DNA of 64,000 nucleotides from Gammaproteobacteria bacterium. GTDB lineage: Bacteria > Pseudomonadota > Gammaproteobacteria > SURF-13. Below are positions 3,230 through 57,094 of the stretch, piece after piece. Position 1 is the stretch's first letter, and each line of letters opens with the position of its first letter. Both the position numbers and the translations under genes were made by a program. The notes below the pieces were generated by a model, which saw only the letters and a list, made by a program, of their open reading frames with translations, was not told where the DNA came from and made no database searches. The DNA lies in the NCBI GenBank assembly GCA_030680605.1, contig JAUXUQ010000012.1, forward strand, positions 22,339 through 86,338. Reading direction: 5' to 3'.

Positions 3230-4633
3230 TCAACGTTCGCGCAGGGCGTCGTACTTGGCCTTGGTGACGGGCTTCAGCAGATAATTCAGCACCGTCTTGT
3301 TGCCGGTGCGGATGTGAACGGTGGCGACCATCCCGGGCATGATCGGCAAATTTCTCTGGCCATTGCCCAGGTTGTTGGTCTTGGTGCGCACGCGAACCAG
3401 AAAGAAGCTTTCGTCTTTTTCGTCCGTGATGGAGTCGGCGGTAACGTTCTCGACGATGGCATCGAGGCCGCCGTAGATCGAGAAATCGTACGCCGTGAAT
3501 TTGACCGTCGCCTCCTGGCCGGGGTGGATGAAGGCGATGTCCGAGGGCCGGATGCGCGCCTCGATCAGCAGGTTGTCTTCGATCGGGACGATCTCCATCA
3601 CGTCCATGCCCGGCTGGATGATGCCGCCGACCGTGGTAATCTTGATCTGCTTGACGATGCCGTCCATGGGAGAGCGAACGGATGTCCGTTCCAGGCGGTC
3701 AGCCATGGCCACACTGGACGCACGTGTTTGCTCGAACTCGGCCCGCGCCATATTGAGTTCTGCAGAGGAGTCCGATCTGAATTTTGCGATCTGGCCCTCC
3801 ACCTTGGTTCTGGCCTCGGCCAGACTCTGCTCCAGGCGCGGGAGCGCCAGGCGGGTCGCGTCGGTCTCGCCCCTCAGGTCGCTCACCTGCCGCTCCAGCC
3901 GCAGCACTTCCACTTCCGACAGCACGCCCTGCGCAACCAGCGGCTTGCTGATCTCAAGCTCGCGCGAAATCAGCCCCAGGCTTTCCTGCAGCTGTACCAG
4001 GCGCGTGCGTTTCTCCTGCAGCTCCTGACCGCGCTGATTGGCTTGCTGGCGCAGCACGGTGAGCGTGGCTTCCAGCTCACTCTGTCGGTTCAGGTAGAGC
4101 TGCCTTTCCTCTTCGGCGATACCCGGATTGGTAAGAAAAAGCTCTTCAGGCACCTGGAAAGACTTGCCGTCAACCTCTGCGGTAAGCCGGGCGATACGCG
4201 CCAGCAAGGCGTCATACTTGGCCTGGGCCTCACCCATCGACGAAGCGAATCGGGTCTTGTCCAGATTGAGCACGATCTGGCCCTTCTTGACGATGTCACC
4301 CAATCTGACCGGAATACTGGCGACGATGCCCCCCTCGAGATTCTGGATCACCTGCACCTGGGCTGAGGGAATAACCTTGCCTTCGCCGACCGTGATCTCT
4401 TCGAGCCGGGAGAAGCTGGCCCAGATCAGCGCGATCACCAGAAAGACAACAAACCCCCGGATGATCATCGAGGCGTAGCGTGGCGGCCCCTGAAAGACCG
4501 CTGCCGTGCTCTCAGGCATGAGCTCGAGATCGGCCTCCCTGGCCGCCTTTTCCTGCTCATCGGGAAGGATAAAGCGCTTCACCTTTTCCCGCAGTAACGC
4601 ACCCACTGCAGCAAGCCTAGCTCTTGGCGACAT
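3230..4633 (-). CDS. HlyD-family type I secretion membrane fusion protein (periplasmic adaptor)
   Basis: ORF 3230..4711. Start refined to the ATG just after the ABC stop. Single N-terminal TM (IIRGFVVFLVIALIWASF), long coiled-coil region, C-terminal HlyD barrel-like region. Confidence 0.85.
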   Translation of the reverse strand: MSPRARLAAVGALLREKVKRFILPDEQEKAAREADLELMPESTAAVFQGPPRYASMIIRGFVVFLVIALIWASFSRLEEITVGEGKVIPSAQVQVIQNLEGGIVASIPVRLGDIVKKGQIVLNLDKTRFASSMGEAQAKYDALLARIARLTAEVDGKSFQVPEELFLTNPGIAEEERQLYLNRQSELEATLTVLRQQANQRGQELQEKRTRLVQLQESLGLISRELEISKPLVAQGVLSEVEVLRLERQVSDLRGETDATRLALPRLEQSLAEARTKVEGQIAKFRSDSSAELNMARAEFEQTRASSVAMADRLERTSVRSPMDGIVKQIKITTVGGIIQPGMDVMEIVPIEDNLLIEARIRPSDIAFIHPGQEATVKFTAYDFSIYGGLDAIVENVTADSITDEKDESFFLVRVRTKTNNLGNGQRNLPIMPGMVATVHIRTGNKTVLNYLLKPVTKAKYDALRER

Positions 4634-6800
4634 TGAGCTTCCCTCCGGACAATGCCTCAAGCACCTGCTCCTTGGGCCCGTCGGCAACGATTCTGCCGCC
4701 TTCGACCACAATCAGCCGATCGACCAGCGTCAGCATCGAGGCGCGATGCGTTACCAGAATCAGGGTCTTGTCGGCCAGATGCGGCTTGATCCTCGCCTTG
4801 AAGTTTTCCTCCGACCGGTTGTCCAGTGAGTTGGTGGGCTCGTCCAGCAGCAATATCGTCGGATCCAGCAGTAATGCCCGGGCAATGGCGATGGACTGCC
4901 GCTGTCCGCCCGACAAGCCGTCTCCGCGCTCGCCCACCGGCATGCCAAAACCCTGGGGATGGCGGTTCACGAAATCGGTTACCCCGGCAATTTCCGCTGC
5001 CCGCAACATTGCCTTGTCGTCGACGTAGGGGGCTCCGAGCACGATGTTTTCCTTGACGCTGCCGAAGAACAGCAGTGAGTCCTGAGGCACGTAACCGATA
5101 TTCCGCCGCAGATCGGCGGGATCGATCTGCTGCTGATCAACACCGTCTACCCAGATCGACCCGGAGGCCGGCTGATAGAGTCCGAGAATGAGTTTTTCAA
5201 TGGTGGATTTGCCCGAGCCAATGCGGCCGATGATGCCGACCCGCTCCTTGGGTGCGACCTTGAACGATATTTTGCTCAGGGCCTCTACCGGCTGCCCCGG
5301 ATAGGCGAAGCTGACATTCTGGAATTCGATTGCCCCCTCGAAGCCCGGACGATTGACGAACTGCTTGCCCGGCGGGCGCTCGGTGGGCAGGTTCATGATG
5401 CTGTTCAGACCCTGGAGCGCCGATCTGGCATGGTGGAAACGGGTGGACAGGGCCGCCACCTGGGACAGGGGGGCCAGAATCCGCCCCGCCAACAGCGTGC
5501 AGGCGATAAGACCGCCCAATGACAGTGATTTGTCAGAGATCAGGTAGACACCCACGACGACGACGCCCACGGTTGCGAGTTGCTGCACAAAAACTGACGA
5601 ATTGACGGCGGCGGCGGACAGCAGCCGTGCGGTCAGGCCGAGCTTGGCGATCTGGCCGACGAGCTGTTCCCAGCGCCGTTGCACCGGGCTTTCTGCGGCC
5701 AGTGCCTTGATCGTCTCCAGCCCCCCCAGGTTTTCGATGAGGGCTGATTGGCGCTGGGCGGTTGCCCGGAATGTTTCACCTATGACGCGTGACAAGGGCT
5801 TTTGCAGGAGGAGACTCGGTATCAGAATCAGCGGAATTGCAACCAGCGGCACCAGCACGACGAGGCCTCCCACCCACCAGACGACCAGCAGGAAGAGCAG
5901 GACAAAGGGCAGGTCAATTAACGTCACGATGGTGGCGGAGGTGAGGAATTCACGGAACGACTCAAACTCATGCAGGCTGTTGGCAAACGCACCAACGGAT
6001 TTCGGGCGCGCTTCCATGCGTATGGCAAGCACCTTCTCAAGAATGGTCGCGGAAAGAATGATGTCGACTTTTTTCCCGGCGATATCGACAAAATATCCGC
6101 GCAGGCTGCGCATGAGGAAATCGAAAACAAAGACGATTCCCACGCCGATCGCCAGCACCCAGAGGGTTGAAAAGGTCTGGTTCGGCACCACCCGGTCATA
6201 CACATTCATGACGAACAGCGGCGTAACCAGGGCAAATACGTTGATCAGGAAGGACGCTACCAGAACCTCGGCATAAATCGGCCACGACTGCTTCAGCGTA
6301 TCCCAGAACCAGTGGCCGCCCTGCGGCAGCGGTGATGCGTCGGCACGTTCGTCAAACCTGAAGATCGGCCGGACGAAGATGGCATAACCGGTATAACTGC
6401 TCTCGATCGCCTCCGGATCTATCCTGACCTCGCCGTCACCCGACTCCGGCTGGATGATGCGCAATTGCCCGCCCTCCTCCCGCTCCAGCAGGATGCAGGC
6501 GTCACCGTCCTGCAGCAAGAGCACAGCCGGCAGCGTGAGATTCGAGATTTCCGCAAGCGGTCGCTTGATGATCCGGGCAGAAAGGTTGGCGCGCTGCGCC
6601 GCCCGGATGAAAAGCTCAGGTGTCAGGCGGGACTCTTCCAGCGGCAGTCCGGCCGTCAATGACTGTGCCGAGTGCGGCTGGTGCTGGATACGGGTGAGTA
6701 TGGCCAGGCAGTTCGCCAACGGATCATCGGGAAGGAGCGCCTCTTTAGGGACTGCCCATTCCTTGGTTTCTGGTGCCTTATCCGTATCCGTCGGGGACAT
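4617..6800 (-). CDS. Type I secretion ABC transporter ATPase/permease, HlyB-like, with an N-terminal C39-like extension
   Basis: 727 aa. About 150-aa N-terminal extension, six TM segments, Walker A GRIGSGKST, ABC signature LSGGQRQ, Walker B LLLDEPT. Translationally adjacent to the HlyD gene. Confidence 0.85.
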   Translation of the reverse strand: MSPTDTDKAPETKEWAVPKEALLPDDPLANCLAILTRIQHQPHSAQSLTAGLPLEESRLTPELFIRAAQRANLSARIIKRPLAEISNLTLPAVLLLQDGDACILLEREEGGQLRIIQPESGDGEVRIDPEAIESSYTGYAIFVRPIFRFDERADASPLPQGGHWFWDTLKQSWPIYAEVLVASFLINVFALVTPLFVMNVYDRVVPNQTFSTLWVLAIGVGIVFVFDFLMRSLRGYFVDIAGKKVDIILSATILEKVLAIRMEARPKSVGAFANSLHEFESFREFLTSATIVTLIDLPFVLLFLLVVWWVGGLVVLVPLVAIPLILIPSLLLQKPLSRVIGETFRATAQRQSALIENLGGLETIKALAAESPVQRRWEQLVGQIAKLGLTARLLSAAAVNSSVFVQQLATVGVVVVGVYLISDKSLSLGGLIACTLLAGRILAPLSQVAALSTRFHHARSALQGLNSIMNLPTERPPGKQFVNRPGFEGAIEFQNVSFAYPGQPVEALSKISFKVAPKERVGIIGRIGSGKSTIEKLILGLYQPASGSIWVDGVDQQQIDPADLRRNIGYVPQDSLLFFGSVKENIVLGAPYVDDKAMLRAAEIAGVTDFVNRHPQGFGMPVGERGDGLSGGQRQSIAIARALLLDPTILLLDEPTNSLDNRSEENFKARIKPHLADKTLILVTHRASMLTLVDRLIVVEGGRIVADGPKEQVLEALSGGKLNVAKS

Positions 6801-11560: not shown

Positions 11561-12052
11561 TCAAAATCCATCATTTTCAGAGGCACCCTGCTTTGCTTCC
11601 TGTTTCATTTCGTCTATGGCCTGATTCGCCAACTGGTCGGCGATTTCATTTTCCGGGTGACCGTTGTGGCCGCGCACCCAGTGCCACGTTACCTTGTGTG
11701 TCGCGACAACGGCGTCCAGCCGCTGCCACAGATCGACATTCTTGACCGGCTTTTTGTCTGCCGTTTTCCAGCCGCGTCGCTTCCAGCTGTTGATCCACTG
11801 ACTGATGCCCTGATGTACATACTGTGAATCGGTTGTGACTGCTGCCTCACATGACCTTTTGAGTGATTCCAGCGCCTGAATCACGGCCATGAGTTCCATC
11901 CGGTTATTGGTGGTATGCGCCTCCGCGCCGAAGAGGGTCTTCTCCGTGCCCTGATAACGCAGCAACGCACCCCAACCGCCGGGGCCGGGATTGCCGCGGC
12001 AGGCACCATCGGTAAATATTTCCACCACGCTGGTGGAGCCGGCTTCAGTCAT
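11561..12052 (-). CDS. rnhA: Ribonuclease HI
   Basis: ORF 11561..12073. Motifs [21 protein letters not shown], active-site D/E/D pattern. Start likely the internal MTEAG. Confidence 0.9.
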
Positions 12053-12836
12053 GGTGCCGTACCTTGCCCGCACTGGTCTCGGGCATGCGTACCGGCACCA
12101 GTCGCCGCGTCGATTCCCAGCGTGGCTTGATCGGCGTGAGTGTTGCTACACGTTTTTTTGCCAGCAGCAGATAGGCGCCGCCCCAGGCGGGCCAGGTACG
12201 CGCGCCCAGTTTCTCCATAAAATCCAGACGCTGCATGATACCGGGGTGACGCAGCGGCGGACGAAAAAAGAACGGTCGTTGCGCCACCACCTCAAATCCG
12301 AGCAGCGCCAGCCAGTCCTTGATCCGCAGCAGGCTGAGAAAACGGCCACACCACGGCGGACGGCCACTGCGCATCAGCGCCAGTCGCCACAGCCCCCACA
12401 GGCTCCACGGATTAAAACCCAGAATGACCACATGGCCCTCGGGAATCAGCACCCGCTCGGCCTCGCGCAACACGCCATGCGGGTCGGCCTCGAATTCCAG
12501 CGTATGCGCCAGCAGCACGACATCCACCGCGTCGGTCGCCACCGGCAGGGCATCAGGTCGACTATAGACCCCCGGCGCAACTTTTCCCGCCCCTTCCAGA
12601 TCGCTCACCAGGACTACGCGGTGGGTAATACGGCTGCTGGCGAGCAGATCGACATCCGTCAGGCTGCCGATCTGGAGCGCGTGATAGCCAAACAGGTTGG
12701 GCAGAAACTCCGCCAGTTGCGCACGCTCCATATCGAGCAGCCAACGCCCCAGGCTCAGCCGATACCAGGCCCGCTGCAGGCGTCTTGTGCCTGATTGCGG
12801 TGTGGCACCACCCTCATGTCCGTTACTGTGTCTCAT
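12045..12836 (-). CDS. Class I SAM-dependent methyltransferase (YafS-like)
   Basis: 263 aa. Similar to E. coli YafS and conserved in position between rnhA and gloB. Confidence 0.7.
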
Positions 12837-25524: not shown

Positions 25525-26217
25525 ATGTCATCGTCACCCCAGCCACACGAGCTCTATCTTCAGCAAATGGTCGAAACCAAGCGCCGACTCCGTGCCGTTG
25601 ATCGAATTCTCGGCGCTAAGAAGCCGCTCACGCGGAACGAAGAAGTCGACAACGAGTGTGCGTTTCTCCAAGTTCGGAGAATCATCGAACTCATCACCTT
25701 CTCCGCTATAGTGTCCGACGAGCAGCGCTATCAACGGTCTCGCAAGCTAGACGCTGAAAAAAATCCGAGAGACAAGGGCGACTACACCCTTGACTGGAAT
25801 GCCGCAGACATTCTCGTCCGCCTCTCCAAGATCAGTCCTCACTTTTTACCCCGCCCTCTTGGTCCAATGACAGCGCAACCAGACGGAACCAAGCACTTCA
25901 GCGAAGCCGCAGCTAAGCTCACGCACGACCGACTGATCGGTATCTACCAGACCGCCGGTGGATTTGCTCACACGCCCAACCCGTACAAGCCGAACGGAGC
26001 GGAGCTGGAAAGGAAGAAGAGAGAAACGGCACGAATAGTTCTGAAAAAAGAGCTTGCCTACCTGAAGTCAGTCATATGGGAGCACGCAAAGATTGGGCTC
26101 GCCTGGAAACCTGGTGCTGATCCGACACAACCCGAAGACAGCGAGACTGCCTGGCTGATTTGGTTCGGAAACAAAGACACCGATCACGTTCGCATGTCGC
26201 TGGCAACCGCCATATGA
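25525..26217 (+). CDS. Hypothetical protein, lower-GC orphan gene
   Basis: 230-aa ORF with visibly lower GC (about 54 percent) than flanks. No motif I can assign. Confidence 0.5.
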   Translation: MSSSPQPHELYLQQMVETKRRLRAVDRILGAKKPLTRNEEVDNECAFLQVRRIIELITFSAIVSDEQRYQRSRKLDAEKNPRDKGDYTLDWNAADILVRLSKISPHFLPRPLGPMTAQPDGTKHFSEAAAKLTHDRLIGIYQTAGGFAHTPNPYKPNGAELERKKRETARIVLKKELAYLKSVIWEHAKIGLAWKPGADPTQPEDSETAWLIWFGNKDTDHVRMSLATAI

Positions 26218-26755: not shown

Positions 26756-27775
26756 ATGATGAATGATCGGCGCAATTTTGCGGCGGGCGGTTTCAAGCCG
26801 GCCTGGTGGTTACGCAACGCCCATCTGCAGACACTGTGGGCCAGCGTGCTGCGACGCGCACCCCGGCCCGCGCTACGACGCGAACGCCTGGAATTGCCGG
26901 ACGGTGATTTTCTTGACCTCGACTGGACGACTGGTACGTCCGGGCCAATAGTGATTCTTCTGCACGGCCTGCAAGGCTCCAGCAACTCCAATTATGCACG
27001 CGGCCTGTTACAGGCCTTGCACCGGCGCGGCTGGCGCGCCGTGCTGATGCACTTTCGCGGTTGCAGTGGCGAACCAAACCGGCTGGCGCGCTTTTACCAT
27101 GCAGGCGATACGGGCGACTTCACTACGCTGGTCAATCTGTTGCGCGCCCGCGAACCGGAAACCCCGCTGGCTGCTATCGGCTGTTCGCTGGGCGGCAATG
27201 TGCTCCTGAAGTGGCTGGGTGAACAAGGCAGTCAGGCACCGCTGGTTTGTGCGGCGGCGGTGTCGGTGCCGTTTGATCTCGCACGTTCGGTTGACCACAT
27301 CAACCAGGGTTGGTCATGCATCTACCAGTATTGGCTGACACGCTGTTTGCGCATTGCGGCACACCGAAAATTCAGCCGCCTGCCCTCGCCATTGGGCACC
27401 AACCTTGGAAAGCTGCATACGCTGCGCGCCTATGACAGTGCAGTGACCGCGCCGTTACACGGCTTTGCCAGTGTGGAGGCGTATTACGCGCAATCGAGCT
27501 GCCACCCCTATCTCACGCATATCCGCATACCCACACTGCTGGCACAGGCGCAGGACGACCCCTTTCTGCCCGCAACGGCTCTCCCCACGTCGGACGCACT
27601 CTCCGCCAGCATCTGCCTTGAGTTGCACCGCCACGGTGGACACATAGGCTTTATCAGCGGTACTCTGCCTTGGGCGCTGAACTACTGGCTGGAGCAGCGC
27701 ATCCCTGACTATATCGCCGCTGCCCTCGCAACGACCGCAGCGGACAACCACAGGCGGACGACAGCAGGCGTATAA
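26756..27775 (+). CDS. Alpha/beta hydrolase, YheT-type
   Basis: 339 aa. HGLQGSSNSNY..., GCSLGGN nucleophile elbow. Confidence 0.75.
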   Translation: MMNDRRNFAAGGFKPAWWLRNAHLQTLWASVLRRAPRPALRRERLELPDGDFLDLDWTTGTSGPIVILLHGLQGSSNSNYARGLLQALHRRGWRAVLMHFRGCSGEPNRLARFYHAGDTGDFTTLVNLLRAREPETPLAAIGCSLGGNVLLKWLGEQGSQAPLVCAAAVSVPFDLARSVDHINQGWSCIYQYWLTRCLRIAAHRKFSRLPSPLGTNLGKLHTLRAYDSAVTAPLHGFASVEAYYAQSSCHPYLTHIRIPTLLAQAQDDPFLPATALPTSDALSASICLELHRHGGHIGFISGTLPWALNYWLEQRIPDYIAAALATTAADNHRRTTAGV

Positions 27776-27778
27776 CTC

Positions 27779-28411
27779 ATGGATATCGACGGCATACTGC
27801 TCGCCAAACTGTTTGTCTCGCTCATCGTGGTGCTTGCGCCGGTCGATGTCATCCCGCTGTACTTGTCACTCACCCATGAGCTGGATGCGCAACAGCGGCG
27901 GCGCGTGCTGCGGCGCATGATCATTACCGTGGTGATCACGCTGCTGGCCTTCCAGTACACGGGCATGTACCTGTTCAACTTCATCGGCATCAGCCTGCCG
28001 AGTTTTCAGGTGGCCGGTGGCCTGATTCTCGCCTCCATGGCGTGGTCGATGCTGCACGCCCTGCCCTCGCGCATTCAGAGCACGCAGGCAGGGGGGGCGG
28101 ACGCCACCCCGCGCGAGGATGTTTCCGTGGTGCCGCTCGGCATCCCGATGCTTGCCGGGCCCGGCACCATTACCACGGTGATCCTCTATGCCCAGCAACA
28201 GCACGGAAGTATCTCGGGCCACCTGCAGTTGAGCGGCGTCATTCTGCTCACGGCGGCGGCGCTCTATGCCTTGTTCAGCCTGGCACGACCCCTGTTCAAC
28301 GCGCTCGGCCCCACCGGCGTGCGCATCACCACCCGCCTCATGGGCATGCTGCTGCTCGCGGTGGCCATGGAATTTATTCTGCGCGGGGTGACTGCGGTAC
28401 TTGCCCGCTAG
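27779..28411 (+). CDS. MarC-family integral membrane protein (UPF0056)
   Basis: 210 aa, six TM segments, MarC family similarity. Confidence 0.8.
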   Translation: MDIDGILLAKLFVSLIVVLAPVDVIPLYLSLTHELDAQQRRRVLRRMIITVVITLLAFQYTGMYLFNFIGISLPSFQVAGGLILASMAWSMLHALPSRIQSTQAGGADATPREDVSVVPLGIPMLAGPGTITTVILYAQQQHGSISGHLQLSGVILLTAAALYALFSLARPLFNALGPTGVRITTRLMGMLLLAVAMEFILRGVTAVLAR

Positions 28412-29250
28412 GGCGATGACAGGCGGGCGCCAACCTCTTCAACCTTGACCAGCACCCGATGCTGCTCATTGCGCAGCGCGCGCGTCGACGCGACAATTTC
28501 GCTCGCGCTCGAACCCTGCTCCTGTACCGCACCACCGATGTCTATCCACTCGCCCAGCTTGCCCGAGACAGTGGTATGCATCTGCGCGATATCAATGCTG
28601 CCGCCGCCTTGCGCCGAGGGCGTGGCACGTTGCGGAGCAATCTCCAGTGTGACCACGTCGCCGCTCACGCGCGGCAGCACGCTAAAACCTGTGGTCACAT
28701 CCTTGTAGGTGATGCTGCTGTACAACCGCGGGTCTATGCCACTGCCCTCGACGCTGCGCTCGACTACCGGGACAGACTGGCCGATTTCAATAAAGGCGGG
28801 GTTGCCTTCGAGCACCTGTATCTGCTGCGTGTTTTTGTCGTGCACCAGGCTGTCACTGTGAATGATACGAACCTCGGCGCCATCACGCGGTGCCGGTGCA
28901 CGGTGGGTGCTGATGCGCACATCGCCACTTTTTATACTGCCACGCAGTGATGCCTCGCTGTCGGCCTGATCGCTGCGGCCATCCTGCCTGACCGTGATCA
29001 GCAGGCGGCGTTGGGCGACATCGAGGGTCTTCAGCATTTGCCTGATCTGCGCCAGATTCTCCGGCGTGGTGCGCACGATCAACTGATTGTTATGGCCGCT
29101 CAGCGCGCCGTCCTTGTCGATGAACGGCTTGACCAGCGCGACGGCCTGCTCCGCCGTGAGGTGTCGAAGCGGTATAATCTCCAGCGTCGGCTCGGCAGCC
29201 AACACCGGTTGCATCAGCACACACAGGATAATGAATCGGATAATCGTCAT
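28408..29250 (-). CDS. Miniature secretin-like protein (signal peptide, one secretin-N domain, compact secretin C-domain-like region)
   Basis: ORF 28408..29310, start refined to MTIIRFIILCVLMQPVLAA. Secretin_N-like LEIIPLRHLTAEQAVALVKPF...NQLIVRTTPENLAQIRQMLKTLD. C-terminal region resembles the secretin pore domain (QVLEGNPAFIEIGQSVPVV, YKDVTTGFSVLPRVSGDVVTLEIAPQ, TTVSGKLGEWIDIGG). Confidence 0.55.
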   Translation of the reverse strand: MTIIRFIILCVLMQPVLAAEPTLEIIPLRHLTAEQAVALVKPFIDKDGALSGHNNQLIVRTTPENLAQIRQMLKTLDVAQRRLLITVRQDGRSDQADSEASLRGSIKSGDVRISTHRAPAPRDGAEVRIIHSDSLVHDKNTQQIQVLEGNPAFIEIGQSVPVVERSVEGSGIDPRLYSSITYKDVTTGFSVLPRVSGDVVTLEIAPQRATPSAQGGGSIDIAQMHTTVSGKLGEWIDIGGAVQEQGSSASEIVASTRALRNEQHRVLVKVEEVGARLSSP

Positions 29251-29251
29251 A

Positions 29252-29791
29252 TCAGATGTACAGCCTGCGTAATTCGGGATCGGACTCGCTTCTGTCCCAC
29301 ATCTCGTCAAAAATTTTCACCATCGCCACGGCCTCCAATGGGGCATTGAAATTCACTACGCCATCGTAACGCTCACTTGTCTTGCGGTGCAGCAGCCCCA
29401 GCTTATCCACCACGAGAAAGTCCTCGTTCAAGGCCTGATGCTCACGTCCCGGTTTGCGCATCTGCATGGTACTGCTCAACTGCTGCGCAAGCTGCACCAG
29501 ACGGTGACCACTTTTGATAATGCCTTCGGTATTCTGCACCAGAATGCGAATCCGGGAGTAGCGGCTGCGGGTGGCAAGCCCGCGCACAGCCGTTATAAAT
29601 GCGGTGGTGTCATACACCGTGTGGTCGAGATCACGGCTGAAGATATGCAAACAGCGCTTGCCCTGCCGGACCAGTGAAGTGGCTGCCATGCGGTTGTCGG
29701 CGCGGGTGGCAATCTGCACCGGTTCGGAATCCTTGCCGAGCTGCATGTGTTCCAGGGTGTATTCTCCCGTCATCACGCCAACCTCAGTCAT
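29252..29791 (-). CDS. Hypothetical cytoplasmic protein, translationally coupled between purB and the secretin-like gene
   Basis: 179-aa ORF. Start 9 nt after the purB stop. Its stop is 1 nt before the downstream gene start. Confidence 0.5.
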   Translation of the reverse strand: MTEVGVMTGEYTLEHMQLGKDSEPVQIATRADNRMAATSLVRQGKRCLHIFSRDLDHTVYDTTAFITAVRGLATRSRYSRIRILVQNTEGIIKSGHRLVQLAQQLSSTMQMRKPGREHQALNEDFLVVDKLGLLHRKTSERYDGVVNFNAPLEAVAMVKIFDEMWDRSESDPELRRLYI

Positions 29792-29800
29792 CCAGCGTAG

Positions 29801-31195
<1,395 letters not shown>

Positions 31196-31213
31196 TTAAT
31201 CATAGCCTTTCCT

Positions 31214-31843
31214 ATGACCAAGACGGCCCGCACATTGAAAAAACTGCTCACGGAGGTACGCGCCTGCCGCGCCTGCGAGCTGCACCTGCCGCTGGGACCG
31301 AAGCCGGTCATCCGCGCCAGCCACACCGCACGGTTATTGATTGTGGGTCAGGCCCCGGGCACACGGGTGCACGCCAGCGGGCTGTCATGGAACGACCCCA
31401 GCGGCGACCGGCTGCGTGACTGGATGGCGATAGACCGGGATATCTTTTACGACGAGGCCCGCATTGCCATCCTGCCGATGGGATTCTGCTACCCGGGCAA
31501 AGGCGCGCGTGGCGACCTGCCACCCCGCGCGGAGTGTGCTGCGCTTTGGCGCGCCCCGCTGCACGCCGCGCTGCCGCAGATCGAGTTCACGCTGCTGATT
31601 GGCCAGTATGCGCAACGCTATTATCTGGGCAAGCGCAAGAAGGCCACACTGGCCGACACGGTGCATGCCTGGCGTGAGTATCTGCCGCACTACCTCCCGC
31701 TGCCTCACCCCAGCCCGCGCAATATTCTCTGGTTCAGACGCAACCCGTGGTTTGAGCGCGAGGTCGTACCTGCACTGCGCGCACAGGTGCGGGCTCGGCT
31801 TTTCCCCGGTACGGCTGTATCGGCACGTGCGCGAAAGCAGTAA
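31214..31843 (+). CDS. Uracil-DNA glycosylase superfamily protein (family 4-like)
   Basis: Starts MTKTARTLKK. CRAC motif and LLIVGQAPG motif. Embedded in a long artefactual ORF (29909..31843). Confidence 0.75.
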   Translation: MTKTARTLKKLLTEVRACRACELHLPLGPKPVIRASHTARLLIVGQAPGTRVHASGLSWNDPSGDRLRDWMAIDRDIFYDEARIAILPMGFCYPGKGARGDLPPRAECAALWRAPLHAALPQIEFTLLIGQYAQRYYLGKRKKATLADTVHAWREYLPHYLPLPHPSPRNILWFRRNPWFEREVVPALRAQVRARLFPGTAVSARARKQ

Positions 31844-31852
31844 AATAATGGT

Positions 31853-34438
31853 TTGCATCAAGCAATACACAGGAACCCCTACGTGCTGAAAAATTACCGC
31901 CTTCATGTCGCCGAGCGCACCGCGCTCAATCTGCCGCCGCTCCCGCTCAACGCCCGACAGGTCGCGGAACTGGTCGAGCTGCTCAAATCGCCGCCCGCTG
32001 CTGAAGGCGAATTGCTGGTTGAGCTGCTGACGCAGCGCGTGCCGCCGGGTGTAGATCAGGCGGCCTATGTGAAGGCAGGGTTTCTCGCCGCGCTGGCGAA
32101 GGGTGAGGCAAGCTGCCCACTGATCGACCGCACGCAGGCCACAAAATTACTCGGCACCATGCTGGGCGGCTACAACATCCACCCGCTCATTGATCTGCTG
32201 GATGACAAGACGCTGGGCCCTGTCGCGGCAGAGGCGTTGGGGCAGACACTGCTGATTTTCGACGCCCACCACGATGTCGCCACCAAGGCCGAACACAATC
32301 CTCAGGCCAGGCGGGTGTTGCAGGCGTGGGCGGATGCCATCTGGTTTGCCCGACGCACGCCGCTGGCCGATGAAATCACTGTTACCGTTTTCAAGGTGCC
32401 GGGCGAGACCAACACCGATGACCTCTCGCCCGCGGCCGAGGCCTGGAGCCGCCCCGACATCCCGCTGCATGCCCGCAGCATGCTCAGCAGCAAAATGCCG
32501 GATGCACTGGAGACCATCGCCACGCTGAAAAAAAAGGGCCACCCGCTGGCCTATGTCGGCGACGTGGTCGGCACCGGTTCATCGCGCAAGTCCGCCATCA
32601 ACTCCGTGCTCTGGCACATGGGCCACGATATTCCCTGCGTACCGAACAAGCGTCAGGGCGGCGTGATTCTGGGCGGCAAGATCGCGCCCATCTTCTTCAA
32701 CACCGCCGAAGACTCCGGCGCATTGCCGATTGAATGCGATGTCGACGCACTCGACACCGGCGATGTCATCAAGATTTATCCGCGCGCCGGGCGCATCACC
32801 GACGAGCACGGCAAAGAGCTGGCGCGCTTTGAGTTGACGCCTGCCACCCTGCCCGACGAAGTACAGGCCGGCGGACGCATACCGCTCATCATCGGCCGCG
32901 CCCTCACTGACAAAACCCGGGAGCTGCTGGGCTTAAAGCCTTCCGCTGCCTTCATCCGCCCGCAGGCCGAAAAAGACAGCGGCAAGGGTTACACCCTGGC
33001 GCAGAAAATCGTTGGCCGCGCCTGTGGCGTGACGGGCATACGCCCCGGCACCTATTGTGAAGCGCGCATGACCACCGTCGGCTCGCAGGACACCACCGGC
33101 GCCATGACCCGTGACGAACTGAAGGAACTCGCCTGTCTGGGATTCTCCGCCGAACTGGTGATGCAGAGCTTTTGCCACACCGCGGCCTACCCGAAACCGG
33201 TGGACATCGAACTGCAGCACGACCTGCCCGACTTCATCCGCACCCGTGGCGGCGTGGTGCTGCGCCCCGGCGACGGCATCATCCACTCGTGGCTGAACCG
33301 CATGCTGCTGCCCGACACCGTCGGCACCGGCGGTGATTCGCACACCCGCTTCCCCATCGGCATCAGCTTTCCGGCCGGCTCCGGCCTGGTCGCCTTCGCC
33401 GCTGCGCTCGGCGTCATGCCCATCAATATGCCGGAGTCGGTGCTGGTGCGCTTCAAGGGCAAGATGCAGCCCGGCATTACCCTGCGCGATCTGGTGAATG
33501 CCGTGCCGTACGTCGCGCTGGAACAGGGCCTGCTCACGCTCGACAAGAAGGGCAAGAAAAACATCTTCTCCGGGCGCGTGATGGAAATCGAGGGCCTGCC
33601 CGATCTCAAGGTGGAACAGGCGTTTGAATTTGCCGACGCCTCGGCGGAGCGCTCCGCCAACGGCTGCACCGTGCGCCTCAACAAGGAACCGGTGATCGAA
33701 TACCTCTCCTCCAACGTCACCCTGCTGAAGTGGATGATTGCCAGCGGCTACGAAGACCGGCGCACGCTGGAGCGGCGCATTCAGGCCATGGAAGCCTGGC
33801 TCGCCAAGCCCGAGATGCTGGAAGCGGACAAGGACGCCGACTATGCCGCCGTGATCGACATCGACATGAACACCATCACCGAGCCGCTGCTGGCCTGCCC
33901 TAACGACCCGGACAACATCAAGCCGCTGTCAGCCGTGGCCGGTGACCCGGTGCATGAAGTCTTTATCGGCTCGTGCATGACCAACATCGGCCACTACCGC
34001 GCGGCGGGCAAGATTCTGGAAGACGGCGGCGAAGTGCCGGTGCGGCTGTGGGTGGTGCCACCCACGCGCATGGACGCCCACCAACTCACCGAAGAAGGCT
34101 ACTACGCCACCTTTGGCCGTGCCGGTGCGCGCACTGAAGTACCGGGCTGCTCGCTGTGCATGGGCAATCAGGCACGAGTCAAGGACGGCGCAACGGTGAT
34201 GTCCACCTCCACCCGCAACTTCCCCAACCGCATGGGCAAAGAGGCCAACGTCTACCTGGGCTCGGCGGAACTCTCCGCCGTCACCGCCAAGCTCGGACAC
34301 ATCCCGACCATGGAAGAATACATGACCTACACCCAGCGTATCGCGCCGCTGTCAGACAATATTTACCGCTACCTCAATTTCCATGAGATGGCGGAATATG
34401 CGGCGGTGGCGGGGAAAGAGGTGGCGGCTGGGACGTAA
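31853..34438 (+). CDS. acnB: Aconitate hydratase B (bifunctional aconitase / 2-methylisocitrate dehydratase)
   Basis: Near-collinear with E. coli AcnB over the full length. True start may be GTG at 31883 ([14 protein letters not shown]). Confidence 0.95.
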
Positions 34439-34662: not shown

Positions 34663-35304
34663 TCAGTTGGGTGGATTTTCTTCCCGCGACTGCAACAGCG
34701 CCGTTACCTCGCGTGCCATGGCGCCACGTCCAAACACCAACTGCCAGCGTCTGCCGCCGACCTGGTGCCACAGCCACGCCGAGCGGATGGCGGCGAGCAG
34801 CAGCGCGCGCACCTTGTTGGCGGTTTCCGGGTTGGACAGATAGCCCTCTTCGCCCTGCACGATGATGCGGGGCGCGAGGGTGCTGATGGTATCGCTGTAG
34901 ATGGCCGCCAGTTGCGCGATGACTTCCGGATGGGTAATCGCCATCGTCTCGCGCTTTTGCTGCGTGGCCTCAATCGCCACGCCGATACCGCTCAGCATTT
35001 CCGGCTGCCTGGCCAGTTGCCGCTCCAGATGCATCACGCTGACCACATAGCGTGCGAGCTCGAGATCACGCGGCACCGCACCCTTGTCGAGTTGCTCCTG
35101 CAAGGTGCGCAGCCCGAGCCGCAGCGCCTGCGTGCCGCCATACACCGCCGCCGTAGTGTCGGCATTGACGTTGACGATGCTGACCAGACAGGCTTCCAGC
35201 GCCTCATTATCGACCATGTTTTTGCGCGCTGCCTGCTGCACCAGACGGCAGGCCTGAAAAATGCCGGCCAACGCCAGCACACGGTCTTTATAGGTAAATA
35301 TCAT
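34663..35304 (-). CDS. hflD: High-frequency lysogenization protein HflD
   Basis: Start refined to [18 protein letters not shown]. Conserved partner of mnmA. Confidence 0.8.
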
Positions 35305-36398
35305 GCCACGCCCTCTTTCCAAATAGACTCTATCACGCCACCGCCCAGACAGTCTTCACCCTGATAAAACACCACCGACTGGCCGGGCGTGACCGCGCGT
35401 TGCGGCGCGTCAAACCGTACTTCACATGTACCATTTTCTGTGTGCGCAAGCGTACAGGGCTGATCCGCCTGCCGGTAACGGGTCTTGGCCATGCACGAAA
35501 GCGGCGTGGGTGGCGCACTGCCCGCCACCCAGCAGAGATCCTGCGCGGTCAGGCCCTGACTGTACAGCAGGGGATGGTCATGACCCTGCGTCACGATCAG
35601 CGTGTTGCTGGCCATGTCCTTGCTCACCACGTACCACGCCTCGCCGCTCATGGCCTGCTGCCCGCCGATGCCCAGACCCTGCCGCTGCCCCAGCGTGTAA
35701 TACATGAGGCCATCGTGTTTGCCGAGCAGATCGCCATCTGCGCTGCGTATCTCACCCGGCTGGGCGGGCAGATAGCGCGAGAGAAAGTTTTTGAAGTTGC
35801 GCTCGCCGATAAAGCAGATGCCGGTGCTGTCTTTCTTGGCGGCATTCACAAACCCCTGCTCGGCGGCAATGGCGCGCACCTCGGGCTTGGTCAACTCGCC
35901 GAGCGGAAACAGGGTGGCCGCCAACTGCTTCTGGCCCAGGGCATGTAAAAAATAACTCTGGTCCTTGTTGAGGTCGCAGGCCTTCAGTAAATGACTCTGG
36001 CCCCCGCGCCGGACGACACGCGCATAGTGGCCGGTGGCGATCATCTCCGCACCGAGTGCCAGCGCATGCTCGAGAAAACTCTTGAACTTGATCTCCTTGT
36101 TGCACAGCACATCGGGGTTGGGTGTGCGGCCGACGCGGTATTCCTCCAGAAAATAGCTGAACACGCGCTCCCAGTACTCGCCTGCGAAGTTTGCGGCATG
36201 CAGGGGGATGTCGAGCTTGGCGCACACCTCTTTCGCATCCTGAAAATCCTCTGCGGCGCTGCACTGTCCCTCGCTGTCATCGCCCTCCCAGTTTTTCATG
36301 AACAAGCCGTGCACTTCATAGCCCTGCTGCAACAACAGCCATGCGGCGACGGAGGAGTCTACGCCGCCTGAGATACCCACCATAACGCGCTTACTCAT
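35301..36398 (-). CDS. mnmA: tRNA-specific 2-thiouridylase
   Basis: 365 aa. PP-loop SGGVDSSV. Full-length MnmA similarity. Confidence 0.95.
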
Positions 36399-36988
36399 GG
36401 ACGCCCTTCTTGTTCAGGGAAATCCTCTTTGTCGAGCCAGCCTTCAAGGCGCTGGATATACGGCGGCTCGCCGTTATCGAGAAACCACGAGTCAACCGCC
36501 CAGCGCTGCCCGCTGACCGACTCGCGGATCACGGCCGTCCAGTGCACATCCAGCACCCACTTCGAGCGACGCGCACGTTCCTGCAGCTCGTGCCAGCGCA
36601 GCAGTCCGTCTTGCTGCAACAGGCTGAGATAGCTGGTGGTGTTGGTGGATTCATCAATGCAATCCATCTGGCCCGGCAGGCCAGCACCGGCCACGTTGCC
36701 GCCCCGATCAGCCGAGGTACCGGCAAGGACACCGGTGAACTCCTCCAGTTGCGCGATGGCGCGCCGGATCATGGCACGCTCTTCTGCCGCCGAGGTGGCG
36801 GCCGGGGAAAACAGGGCGCGCGTGGACTGCCATTGCTGGTCACTGAGCCAGACAAACTGCCTACGGCTGCACTCGAAGTTATAGCAGACCTGCAGCCCCT
36901 TGAAGGCCGCGGCGTCTGCCTGCGCGCTACACACGGGTATTGCTCCGAGCAGGCAGCCCGTCACCAGCACGTATGGTATGCAGCTCAT
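36395..36988 (-). CDS. Secreted protein of unknown function, paralog 1 of a tandem pair
   Basis: Signal peptide, conserved Cys pair, conserved blocks [16 protein letters not shown] and [15 protein letters not shown] shared with the upstream paralog. Confidence 0.6.
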
Positions 36989-37599
36989 GACGCCGGCGGC
37001 TCCCAGCCGTCCTGCCACACCCGTAACGGCAATATAAACGGCGGTTCCCCATTATCGAGAAACCAGGAATCCACCGCGAACCGTTCTCCGCTCTCGTTGT
37101 CACGTATCACCGCCGTGGTATGCGGCCAGCCGAAGATGAAAAACCCACGCGTCACACGGTCTTGTACGCTGTGGCGAGTGACCAGACCCTCCTGCACCAG
37201 CATCGTGAGATAGCTGGTGGTATTGGTGGACTCATCAATACAATCCATCTGCCCATCTGTGCCTACGCCCTGAAAATTGCGCCCCTTGTCATTCAATGTG
37301 CCTGCCAATGGGCCGACCAGGGTCTCCATAAACGCAATTCCGTGCGCGATATCCCTGCGCTCATCCTCGGCAGTTTCAGCCGGCGATGAAAATCGATCGC
37401 GCACCTGCTGCCACTGCACAGGCGTCAGGGACACCTGCGTCACCTCGCGGCAGGTATGCCCGGAGCAGACTGAAAACCGTTCCGGCGCAGGGTCCGTAAT
37501 GATATCCCCTCGCACGAAGGTATCTGCATAAACAGACCCTATCCCCCACACGCTGACACCCCATGCCAGTGCGAGAACAAAACTGTTAACACAGCGCAT
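36985..37599 (-). CDS. Secreted protein of unknown function, paralog 2 of a tandem pair
   Basis: Signal peptide MRCVNSFVLALAWGVSVWGIGSVYA. Shares [16 protein letters not shown] / [15 protein letters not shown] blocks with paralog 1. Confidence 0.6.
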   Translation of the reverse strand: MRCVNSFVLALAWGVSVWGIGSVYADTFVRGDIITDPAPERFSVCSGHTCREVTQVSLTPVQWQQVRDRFSSPAETAEDERRDIAHGIAFMETLVGPLAGTLNDKGRNFQGVGTDGQMDCIDESTNTTSYLTMLVQEGLVTRHSVQDRVTRGFFIFGWPHTTAVIRDNESGERFAVDSWFLDNGEPPFILPLRVWQDGWEPPAS

Positions 37600-55323: not shown

Positions 55324-56394
55324 ATGAACGACATCAGCAGAGAGCCGGTCACGTCACGGGCCATTCGCGTCAAATTCCTAAGCAAGACCGGCGAACGGAT
55401 CTGGCGCAGGCAACTGCCGGGACATGGCGCCCTATGGGGCAACTGCGAATTCATCTTTGACAAAGATGAGCGGGACTATGACTGGCTGGTAGTCTATGAT
55501 GATCTTCCGTCAACGAAAGGCGAGCGCTTCTCCGTCCGAGTGGAGCCGCTGTCCTGCGCTCGGGAAAACACCCTCCTTGTCACCACCGAACCTTCTTCCA
55601 TCAAATCCTACGGCAGCGCCTATACCGCGCAGTTTGGCCATGTGCTGACCAGCCAGGAACCCTGGGCGCTGCCGCACCCCAACCGGATATACTCACAGCC
55701 GGCCTTACGCTGGTTTTATGGTGTGGGCCGCGGACATGAGATTTCATATGACCACTTGGCAAGCGCGCAACCGCCATCCAAATCAAAAACCCTCTCTACC
55801 GTCTGCTCCAGCAAACGGCAGAAGCACACCTTGCACAACAGACGCTATGAATTCACCCTGGCACTGAAAGCGCTGCTCCCCGAACTGGATATCTACGGCC
55901 ATGGCGTGCGTGACATGGATGACAAGGCGGAGGCGCTGGATGACTACCGTTACCACATCGCCATTGAGAATTACGTCGGCGCCCACCACTGTACCGAGAA
56001 GTTGTCGGATGCGTTTCTGGGATTCACATTGCCGTTTTATTACGGCTGCCCCAATGCGGAACAGTACTTCCCGCCCCGGAGTTTCATCCGTATCGATATC
56101 GGCGATATTGAGAAAACCCGCAATATCATTGCGCGCGCCATTGCGGACAATGAATACCAGAAGCGGCTTCCGGACATCGTGGAAGCGCGCCGCAGGGTTC
56201 TGGAGGATTACAATATTTTTTCGGTGTTGGCAAATGTTGTGGGCGCGCATCATGCGGCGGCGGGCGCCCGCAAGGAACCTTTTATCCTGATGTCCCGCCG
56301 CGCCCTGATAACCAGACATCCGCTCGCAGGGCTGAGGCACCTGTTTGAAAAGGCGCGTGTCAGGCTGCTGCATTCAGCCGGGCGCGGACAATGA
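55324..56394 (+). CDS. Putative fucosyltransferase, GT10-like
   Basis: C-terminal motif YRYHIAIENYVGAHHCTEKLSDAFLGFTLPFYYGCPN matches the alpha-1,3-fucosyltransferase signature (Y.F.LAFENS...DY.TEK). Sits next to GDP-fucose synthesis genes. Confidence 0.55.
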   Translation: MNDISREPVTSRAIRVKFLSKTGERIWRRQLPGHGALWGNCEFIFDKDERDYDWLVVYDDLPSTKGERFSVRVEPLSCARENTLLVTTEPSSIKSYGSAYTAQFGHVLTSQEPWALPHPNRIYSQPALRWFYGVGRGHEISYDHLASAQPPSKSKTLSTVCSSKRQKHTLHNRRYEFTLALKALLPELDIYGHGVRDMDDKAEALDDYRYHIAIENYVGAHHCTEKLSDAFLGFTLPFYYGCPNAEQYFPPRSFIRIDIGDIEKTRNIIARAIADNEYQKRLPDIVEARRRVLEDYNIFSVLANVVGAHHAAAGARKEPFILMSRRALITRHPLAGLRHLFEKARVRLLHSAGRGQ

Positions 56395-56548
56395 CACATC
56401 CTCCGCAGCCACTTTGCGGCCACACAGGCGTCTGGCCACGTACCCAGCCCGACGAATTTCCCTGGATGACATTCGACAGATAGCTTTATGCTCGGCGCGT
56501 CCACAGGCGACCCCGCCATTAAAACCTAACACGGCGACAGCAATCCAA

Positions 56549-57094
56549 ATGAACATCGGAAAATCACTGGAAAAATGGTTTCGTGGAGCGCGATATGCGC
56601 CGCGAATATTGATGAGGTACGGGACATTGAATCCCGAGGTCGTCAGCATTCCGCATGCCGCCGGCAGATTCCACATCAACCCCCATGATGAACGCGCCAG
56701 AAAGAAATTGATTTTTGACGCGGTCAGAAACAGGTACTCGATCAACCGCAGGTTCTGGAACGACTTCATAGCCGCAGTCCAGCCAGACCTGGCATTGGAT
56801 ATCGGCACAAACTATGGGGAGTGCATTTTCTCCCCCACGTACCCGGACAACACGAGGGCAATCGCCTTTGAGGCCAACCCTGAACTGGTGGGCTACCTGG
56901 AAAAAACCCGCCACGATCACCCCTCCATGAATCAGATTGAAGTGATCAACGCGCTGGTAGGCAAGGAACCCTCCGGGCAACTGGGAATTGTCCTGATCCG
57001 AGAGCAGGGAACAATGGGCGTCATCCACAAATTCAATGGCAGACCCCTGTGGCTTGCTTGTGGTGTGTGGTGTTCTGCCGGGCTTGCGCCATGA
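56549..57094 (+). CDS. FkbM-family methyltransferase (short)
   Basis: Starts MNIGKSLEKW. ALDIGTNYGECIF resembles the FkbM SAM-binding motif. Confidence 0.55.
   Translation: MNIGKSLEKWFRGARYAPRILMRYGTLNPEVVSIPHAAGRFHINPHDERARKKLIFDAVRNRYSINRRFWNDFIAAVQPDLALDIGTNYGECIFSPTYPDNTRAIAFEANPELVGYLEKTRHDHPSMNQIEVINALVGKEPSGQLGIVLIREQGTMGVIHKFNGRPLWLACGVWCSAGLAP

Follow-up and report, generated by a model that had tools for sequence, protein, structure and literature searches.

Gene B, which occupies positions 28408..29250 on the minus strand of a 64,000-nucleotide stretch of gammaproteobacterial DNA (contig JAUXUQ010000012.1 of assembly GCA_030680605.1; the whole 64-kb stretch is called the window here), encodes a 280-residue precursor that is, judged by its sequence, a genuine, exported and unusually short member of the secretin family. 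Secretins are the outer-membrane portals of large trans-envelope machines, and the parts regarded as coupling them to the machine and placing them in the membrane are the N0 domain, which docks canonical secretins to the inner-membrane platform, the amphipathic helical loop (AHL)/lip module and, often, a pilotin-binding S domain. The pore region of gene B is a nearly complete secretin domain without these coupling and membrane-insertion accessories, and we lean towards the view that gene B is an intact minimal secretin, which would form an autonomous gated ring at the outer membrane and act without a dedicated secretion machine.

Several searches place gene B among the secretins. Pfam Secretin_N (PF03958) matches residues 24-81 with 42.3 bits against a cut-off of 28.2 (E=9e-11), and Pfam Secretin (PF00263) matches residues 139-250 with 40.1 bits against a cut-off of 27.5, covering profile positions 11-131 of 169. 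The first-pass annotation of this DNA, made from the letters alone, had proposed an exported, unusually short secretin-family protein of 280 residues and had held that the proposal would fall if these two profiles gave no significant match; both score above the Pfam cut-offs, and Pfam, the profile search against the PDB, Foldseek and the PHROG family of pIV are concordant. A profile built from 111 relatives matches solved GspD, pIV and PilQ chains with E values from 7e-10 to 1e-6. The best single profile match of gene B is the PHROG family of M13 pIV (phrog_1012, E=4e-19, residues 22-253), a match that covers only profile positions 108-366 of 403, with N0 absent. An AlphaFold2 (AF2) monomer model has a mean predicted local distance difference test score (pLDDT) of 64.6, with about 80 in the N domain and 58-89 in the barrel core, and when it was searched against the PDB with Foldseek the best 33 matches were all secretins (PilQ, InvG, GspD and pIV; E 3e-9 to 7e-4), with TM scores of about 0.4-0.46 for the best 31. 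No NCBIfam model exists for this family, and the equivalog cut-offs of the three related models are widely missed: 60.2 bits against 351 for TIGR02517 (GspD), 37.9 against 284 for TIGR02515 (PilQ) and 13.6 against 238 for TIGR02516 (SctC). All of these are partial matches, the best being that to TIGR02517 (E=1.4e-16), and the SctC model reaches E=0.018.

We derived the domain anatomy from direct alignments of the family with M13 pIV (gene IV) and E. coli K-12 GspD, taking the landmark residues of pIV from PMC8563730. From N- to C-terminus the segments are as follows.

29194..29250, minus strand: residues 1-19, predicted Sec signal peptide MTIIRFIILCVLMQPVLAA (from sequence inspection; the AF2 model has a helix at residues 2-12)
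29008..29187, minus strand: residues 22-81, single N3-type (Secretin_N) ring-building domain (PF03958; aligns with the N3 domains of pIV and GspD; pLDDT about 80)
28834..28977, minus strand: residues 92-139, lip-equivalent segment, variable in length, charged and poor in aromatic residues (pLDDT below 50 in the AF2 model)
28531..28806, minus strand: residues 149-240, gate region, the most conserved part of the family, where the invariant and near-invariant columns cluster
28462..28530, minus strand: residues 241-263, 23 residues in place of the canonical 37-residue AHL segment (three-way alignment)
28432..28461, minus strand: residues 264-273, last outer-barrel strand RVLVKVEEV, aligning with the terminal strand of pIV and GspD

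By inspection, the N-terminus (MTIIRFIILCVLMQPVLAA/EP) carries an AxA-type cleavage site and no lipobox. The signal segment likewise ends in AxA-type sites across the family alignment, which contains no lipobox, and lipoprotein or pilotin-type anchoring of gene B was rejected on that ground. In the alignments, gene B has no counterpart to the N0 domain and linker of pIV or to the N0-N2 domains of GspD; the mature protein opens with the N3-type domain, and the family proteins begin within about 20 residues of the profile start. By these alignments the mature protein, of about 261 residues, is one N3-type domain fused directly to a secretin beta-domain.

Within that beta-domain the first outer-barrel strand is kept (RRLLITVRQD), as is the strand with the pattern TTVxxxxGxxxxxGG. 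The VGQxVP motif forms the entry to Gate 1; the invariant G157 there is aligned with hinge glycine G267 of pIV, and Gate 1 spans 31 residues in gene B versus 30 in pIV. A second conserved glycine, G188, lies 2 residues past the position of G297 of pIV, and residues 206-222 make up a loop of Gate 2 length. Gene B ends 7 residues past the last barrel strand, with no S domain, and the family proteins terminate where the profile terminates. The first-pass description of a compact region merely resembling the secretin pore domain was thus an understatement, as the first and last strands, the inner barrel and both gate loops are present.

These features are constant across a large family. A word-index search returned 1499 relatives, the best 120 of which are nearly all 271-337 residues long, with three shorter partial entries, and a profile search of 1.84 billion representatives yielded 1168 clusters (at 50% identity) with E<=1e-30. 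The best 150 of these 1168 representatives measure 231-372 residues, nearly all matching the profile from end to end. The gene B product, which is identical to MDP1708699.1 from a Gammaproteobacteria metagenome-assembled genome (MAG), belongs by these comparisons, at full length, to a discrete family of proteins of about 285 residues, here called mini-secretins. The possibility raised at the outset that gene B is a truncated pseudogene of a full-length secretin in its relatives does not agree with this picture: gene B is full length for its family, and the family-wide constancy of length and profile coverage rules out a pseudogene or a truncation. A single diagnostic peptide pattern alone recovers at least 551 GTDB species, a lower bound on the spread of the family. 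These are mostly Betaproteobacteria, joined by unclassified Gammaproteobacteria, the betaproteobacterial MAGs being labelled Nitrosospira, Nitrosovibrio, Gallionella, Sideroxydans, Uliginosibacterium, Burkholderiales and Rhodocyclales.

Gene B appears to be an orphan secretin in housekeeping surroundings, because neither the window nor the related loci hold genes of a partner machine and the gene has no match in phage, plasmid or defence-system collections. Among the open reading frames (ORFs) scanned in the window, which are most of those of at least 100 residues, there are none of a type II or type III secretion system (T2SS, T3SS), of type IV pili (T4P), of a Tad system or of a phage; the scanned ORFs are housekeeping genes or have no Pfam match, except for one type I secretion pair. 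That pair (a C39-peptidase ABC exporter and an HlyD-family adaptor, 3230-6800 on the minus strand) lies 22 kb from gene B; its genes are the only secretion genes in the window and are unrelated to secretins. The same machine and phage genes are also missing within about 6 kb in 82 related loci, where the neighbours were counted by tblastn with defined neighbour proteins on fragmentary MAG and metagenome contigs. The neighbours found there are all of housekeeping or envelope kinds (NlpC/P60, patatin, SLT_2, DinG, purB, purL, MarC, an ABC transporter and PgpA), the commonest in the following positions.

Divergent secreted NlpC/P60 endopeptidase gene: 42 of 82 loci, 50-420 nt upstream in nearly all
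SLT_2 lytic transglycosylase, upstream: 31 of 82 loci
DinG, downstream: 28 of 82 loci
Patatin, upstream: 20 of 82 loci
DUF7931, directly upstream: 13 of 82 loci
purB, upstream: 8 of 82 loci
purL, downstream: 4 of 82 loci

Searches with tblastn found no match to gene B in 50,697 phage records or 72,556 plasmids, which leads us to reject a prophage or plasmid origin. PADLOC, which covers defence systems, returned no match for gene B or for gene A, the gene directly upstream of it, and a defence system was rejected on that ground.

Two arrangements recur among the related loci. In the betaproteobacterial type, seen at locus L081 (7324-8846) and at 41 others among L009-L081, the mini-secretin gene and the NlpC/P60 gene form a divergent pair, often with a patatin-like gene and SLT_2 beyond it and with DinG downstream. 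The divergent pairing with NlpC/P60 is a possible lead to a cell-wall-related role. In one gamma-type group (L032, L058, L068 and L080; for example L058, 4059-10778) the order is purB, DUF7931, mini-secretin, purL and Smr, so that the secretin pair is wedged between two purine-biosynthesis genes.

The most striking departure from canonical secretins lies in the segments that would touch the membrane. In the alignment with pIV and GspD, a 12-residue gap in gene B falls exactly at the motif VPxLxxIPxxGxLF, which we take to be the AHL, consistent with PMC6155069. The AHL has been described as the most conserved secretin sequence and as central to membrane association (PMC6155069). A loose AHL pattern matches none of the 111 family members, and it matches both pIV (IPLIGLLF) and GspD (IPLVGQLF). 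The lip-equivalent segment, rich in Arg, Asp and Glu and nearly free of aromatic residues, also differs in composition from its counterparts, in a comparison that has two reference secretins only.

Mini-secretin family, lip-equivalent (residues 92-139 of gene B): 37-66 residues, 31% charged, 0.6% aromatic, mean hydrophobicity -0.24
pIV and GspD, lip: 50 and 73 residues, 10-12% charged, 8-14% aromatic, hydrophobicity about +0.18

Alternating hydrophobic and polar columns are nevertheless conserved in three stretches of the segment (100/102/106, 111/113/115 and 125/127/129), and a short amphipathic beta-lip in residues 92-139 is possible from this pattern. The first-pass annotation had suggested a minimal outer-membrane channel. 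Its secretin domain is real, but the channel stays a matter of inference, because the AHL motif is gone and the lip-equivalent segment is not hydrophobic.

In the reading that we favour, the gene B product would be exported by Sec and its signal peptide removed, after which the mature subunits, by homology, would come together as a double-walled 12-15-mer barrel, with the conserved loops of Gate 1 and of Gate 2 shutting its lumen. The ring would sit at or under the outer membrane, again by homology, and would work without an inner-membrane platform and without a T2SS, T3SS, T4P, Tad or phage partner machine. Several points weigh against this reading. Relative to pIV, the glycine of the second gate hinge is shifted by two residues, and the monomer model is only moderate, with pLDDT below 50 in both the lip-equivalent and the AHL-replacement segments. 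The loss of the AHL together with so charged and aromatic-poor a lip-equivalent argues against a canonical span of the outer membrane; the contrast in composition rests on those two references. The same observations give some weight to a different ring, one that does not span the outer membrane and serves instead, in the periplasm or peripherally attached, as a gated cage or as a scaffold that may be connected with cell-wall remodelling. Both canonical membrane-contact elements are altered in the family, with the AHL motif deleted in 111 of 111 members examined; a lipobox is absent; and at about half of the loci (those 42 of 82) a peptidoglycan endopeptidase is encoded divergently, often with SLT_2 close by. 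On the other hand, the three alternating stretches of the lip-equivalent would suffice for a short amphipathic beta-lip, the gate loops are so strongly conserved as to suggest a passage that is held closed, and the NlpC/P60 neighbourhood is an association only. We consider a ring of this non-spanning kind a minority possibility, to be taken seriously but rather less likely than not to be correct.

Two further explanations would make gene B something other than an intact cellular secretin. It could be a degenerate remnant, in the form of a pseudogene cut down from a full-length T2SS or T4P secretin or of a single half of a split secretin such as RhcC1/NolW. Gene B is indeed less than half the length of GspD, it reaches the GspD, PilQ and SctC models of NCBIfam only partially and far under their cut-offs, and relatives are named 'nodulation protein NolW' in some entries. 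However, length and end-to-end profile coverage are conserved across the 1168 clusters, a single reading frame holds the signal peptide and the N domain together with the first as well as the last barrel strand, the codon bias of gene B is that of a coding gene, and no second secretin fragment or T3SS gene stands beside it in the 82 loci. A NolW-type split secretin was rejected on the presence of both barrel ends and the lack of a second fragment or of a T3SS context, and we find the remnant explanation as a whole scarcely credible. A domesticated or prophage-borne export channel of the pIV type of filamentous phages is very improbable, if a shade less so. It draws on the PHROG match, which is the best that gene B has to any single profile, and on the architecture of pIV, the most compact solved secretin, in which the S domain is absent as in gene B (PMC8563730). 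Yet gene B has neither the N0 domain nor the IPLIGLLF motif of pIV, the phage and plasmid collections hold no tblastn match, no phage genes were found in the window or in the related loci, and the chromosomal housekeeping position is stable over hundreds of species. An intact minimal secretin that works on its own is the reading that we carry forward.

We turn now to the genes around gene B in the window. They are arranged as a string of three genes on the minus strand, met by a convergent gene.

29801..31168, minus strand: purB, adenylosuccinate lyase, 455 residues, first gene of the string (NCBIfam NF006764, E=2.8e-227; Pfam Lyase_1 and ASL_C)
29252..29791, minus strand: gene A, DUF7931 protein, 179 residues from the first ATG; likely start at ATG 29773, giving 173 residues (Pfam PF25559, E=3.3e-44)
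28408..29250, minus strand: gene B, minimal secretin, 280-residue precursor (Pfam Secretin_N and Secretin, both over their cut-offs)
27779..28411, plus strand: MarC/NAAT-family membrane protein, convergent to gene B (Pfam MarC, E=7.9e-48)

The first ATG of gene A, at 29791, stands exactly 9 nt past the purB stop and gives 179 residues, just as the first-pass annotation had it. The second ATG, at 29773, is the likelier start, because it has GAGG 8 nt upstream, the homologues of gene A are mostly 167-173 residues long and an independent public gene call on an identical contig makes gene A 173 residues; the gap between purB and gene A is then probably 27 nt. The gene A stop (TGA, 29254..29252) lies one nucleotide from the gene B ATG at 29250, which bears out the earlier remark that the two abut. 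Neither gene is a chance ORF, because both show coding-type bias, with GC content higher at third than at second codon positions (GC3>GC2), and both have full-length homologues in the hundreds. A consensus scan of 27600-31900, a weak type of evidence, found no terminator-like sites and no minus-strand promoter-like sites. A purB-A-B transcript had been read into this layout from the start. The shared strand, the gaps of 27 (or 9) nt and 1 nt and the lack of an internal terminator-like or promoter-like site all fit it, and from the layout the three genes are probably transcribed together, with gene B translated by coupling to gene A; we nevertheless grade the transcript itself as plausible only. 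The stop codons of gene B and of the MarC gene overlap by 4 nt (28408-28411), which marks the end of the string and leaves no space for a terminator between the two converging transcription units.

Gene A had been called unannotatable, but Pfam DUF7931 (PF25559) matches it over profile positions 3-149 of 149 with 150.6 bits against a cut-off of 27 (E=3.3e-44). Its AF2 model has a pLDDT of 90.5, and Foldseek finds as its closest folds TrmBL2 (E=4.7e-7), the nucleases Nuc (1byr, 1.6e-6) and NucT (6ehi, 2.2e-6) and the pseudo-phospholipase D FAM83/BJ-TSA-9, with true phospholipases D following; over these closest folds E ranges from 5e-7 to 6e-6 and the query-normalised TM score from 0.58 to 0.63. 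No Pfam PLD family matches gene A. The catalytic motif HxKxxxxD (HKD), which Nuc and NucT carry, is found in none of 32 aligned DUF7931 sequences, and the position 7 residues ahead of the invariant D129 is variable in the alignment. In this respect gene A resembles the C-terminal domain of TrmBL2/TrmB and FAM83/BJ-TSA-9, which have the phospholipase-D-like fold without the catalytic HKD. Its conserved residues are R82, H96, S107, D129 and E163, and it has no signal peptide. Judging from the model, gene A would be a cytoplasmic protein with a phospholipase-D-like fold and no HKD motif, and one that probably binds or regulates instead of catalysing, because the motif is absent from the fold. We found no paper on DUF7931 in the literature searched, whose coverage does not extend to all journals.

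The first-pass annotation had also cast gene A as the partner of gene B. We examined this from both sides, with the 82 mini-secretin loci and with a sample of 80 metagenomic DUF7931 loci, 56 of which have enough upstream and 59 enough downstream sequence. Upstream of DUF7931 we found GNAT in 42, JmjC in 40 and purB in 35 of the 56 loci, and a mini-secretin came next after it in only 9 of the 59. In uncultured Gammaproteobacteria a string of purB, JmjC_2 (cupin/ribosomal-oxygenase-like), GNAT and DUF7931 recurs, often with a convergent pyrD next to it (L083, 2939-6540; L084, 2948-6549; L085, 2749-6507; and many of L086-L165). On three long contigs the order purB-JmjC_2-GNAT-DUF7931 is followed by convergent genes and no secretin. 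The DUF7931 gene thus mostly belongs with purB, in purB-JmjC-GNAT company, and not with the pore gene. In the lineage of the window the JmjC and GNAT genes are missing from the purB-A-B string, and gene B stands directly behind gene A. From the other side, 69 of the 82 mini-secretin loci have no DUF7931 next to them. In a neighbour-joining tree of the gene B family, one clade holds all 41 NlpC/P60-linked genes and no DUF7931-linked gene, and all 64 of its members lack gene A alongside; in the remaining gamma-type branch, 22 of 26 genes directly follow DUF7931. The check on phylogenetic distribution that the first-pass annotation had called for gives a divided answer, in which the pair is stable in the gamma-type branch but absent from the whole NlpC/P60-containing clade, and the partnership is at any rate not obligate. 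The A-B adjacency is old and stable in one lineage, and each family mostly lives without the other.

It could still be that genes A and B form a functional two-gene module expressed with purB, in which the cytoplasmic DUF7931 protein regulates, or is needed for, the production or use of the mini-secretin. The 1-nt spacing seen here has its like in relatives, where the two genes overlap or nearly abut. The adjacency also outlasts changes in the flanks (purB-A-B-MarC, purB-A-B-purL, GNAT-A-B-methyltransferase and purB-JmjC-GNAT-A-B), and the 22 of 26 gamma-type genes that follow gene A extend down to about 30-40% identity. This persistence while both flanks change counts against a reading of gene B as a gene with no tie to gene A, and keeps a functional link in play. 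Against such a module stand the low share of DUF7931 loci that carry a mini-secretin, set beside the far more frequent GNAT, JmjC and purB, and the 64 clade members with no gene A next to them. Furthermore, gene A has no signal peptide and gene B is exported, so that any direct contact must precede export, and stable vertical inheritance of gene order accounts for the adjacency equally well. We therefore think the module somewhat unlikely, and a functional link between the two genes, which is no better supported than inherited gene order, doubtful to the same degree.

The window as a whole contains no Rfam family at gathering score and no tRNA gene. The nearer neighbours of gene B are the mnmA-hflD region, acnB, a UDG-family gene, purB, MarC, an alpha/beta hydrolase and a Sel1 protein, and farther out lie ABC transporters, ribonucleotide reductase, clpB and lipopolysaccharide genes. 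The usual gammaproteobacterial order mnmA-hflD-purB is interrupted in the window (31853-34438 on the plus strand, 34663-36398 on the minus strand): between hflD (DUF489) and purB stand the UDG-family gene (31199-31843, plus strand) and a large gene, presumably that of aconitase B, a reading made with no profile scan. Six ORFs have coding-type GC3 bias and no Pfam match (E<=1e-5), and one adjacent pair among them sits between mnmA and a NUDIX gene.

25525-26217, plus strand
36395-37018, minus strand
36985-37599, minus strand
520-1062, plus strand
11991-12794, plus strand
56345-57094, plus strand

The mini-secretin family apparently has not been described. A search of the literature for orphan, short, minimal, stand-alone or small secretins, with coverage short of all journals, found nothing relevant. 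The domain matches themselves are already visible in databases; what seems to have gone unrecognised is that the family is at once widespread as orphans, has kept the gate and has lost every known element for coupling and insertion. The family keeps the gate and the barrel, drops the N0 domain, the AHL/lip module and the S domain, and does so in a housekeeping setting in at least 551 species. We put forward, tentatively, that mini-secretins are a distinct, self-standing class of secretin, a gated ring that does without an inner-membrane platform, a pilotin or an AHL/lip insertion module, and that serves hundreds of beta- and gammaproteobacterial species as a housekeeping part of the envelope, possibly linked to wall remodelling. 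If this is true, they would be the first secretins with a role outside the T2SS, the T3SS, type IV filaments and phage export. Should the ring be a gated pore, the mini-secretin would be a minimal, self-sufficient secretin pointing to a new export or uptake route; if the ring does not cross the membrane, the secretin fold would have been put to a new use. In both cases, so small a protein lends itself well to studies of how secretins assemble and gate. A smaller benefit lies in annotation, where labels such as 'NolW' or 'GspD/PulD' on mini-secretin genes are misleading.

Known systems share parts of this design. RhcC1/NolW is a short, split T3SS secretin of rhizobia that acts within a T3SS cluster together with another secretin fragment. 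Some relatives of gene B bear the label 'nodulation protein NolW' in public records, but unlike NolW, gene B carries the two barrel ends on a single protein and lies outside any T3SS context. GspD shares with gene B the N3-type domain, the VGQxVP gate motif and the terminal strand, and P. aeruginosa XcpQ (GspD; 5WLN) is the best solved-structure match to the family profile (E=7e-10). In contrast to gene B, which lacks N0-N2, the AHL and the S domain and has no gsp neighbours, E. coli K-12 GspD is a protein of 650 residues with N0-N1-N2-N3, a lip-aligned segment of about 70 residues, the AHL IPLVGQLF and an S domain, and GspD is encoded in a gsp operon.

Secretins without N0 have precedents. 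KilC, of the Tad-like Kil system of Myxococcus xanthus, is a 'uniquely short' secretin lacking N0, and it is required for a machine whose Tad-like cluster encodes an ATPase, platform proteins and pilins (PMC8460266). It is a precedent for a functional N0-less secretin, likened to gene B by description only, and gene B has no Tad-like neighbours. The mitochondrial GspD of the eukaryotic T2SS-derived system is an N0-less C-domain secretin that oligomerises and forms pores, with its N domains on separate polypeptides and with other Gsp homologues co-occurring (PMC8134430). Gene B, in contrast, is bacterial, retains a single N domain in cis and lacks Gsp partners.

The closest comparison is with pIV of f1/M13 (PDB 7OFH), which like gene B has no S domain and can be aligned with it from the N3 domain to the C-terminus, through the first barrel strand, Gate 1 (G157 with G267), Gate 2 and the last strand. 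In pIV, the N0 domain and linker make up mature residues 1-107 and couple the protein to the phage assembly machinery (PMC8563730). Gene B has neither these nor the IPLIGLLF motif, at which it has the 12-residue deletion; the lip region of pIV is longer and more hydrophobic than its lip-equivalent; and gene B, unlike pIV, is chromosomal and has no phage context. By these alignments pIV is the nearest solved relative in architecture, and gene B is roughly pIV minus its N0 domain, with a shorter lip-equivalent and without the AHL motif.

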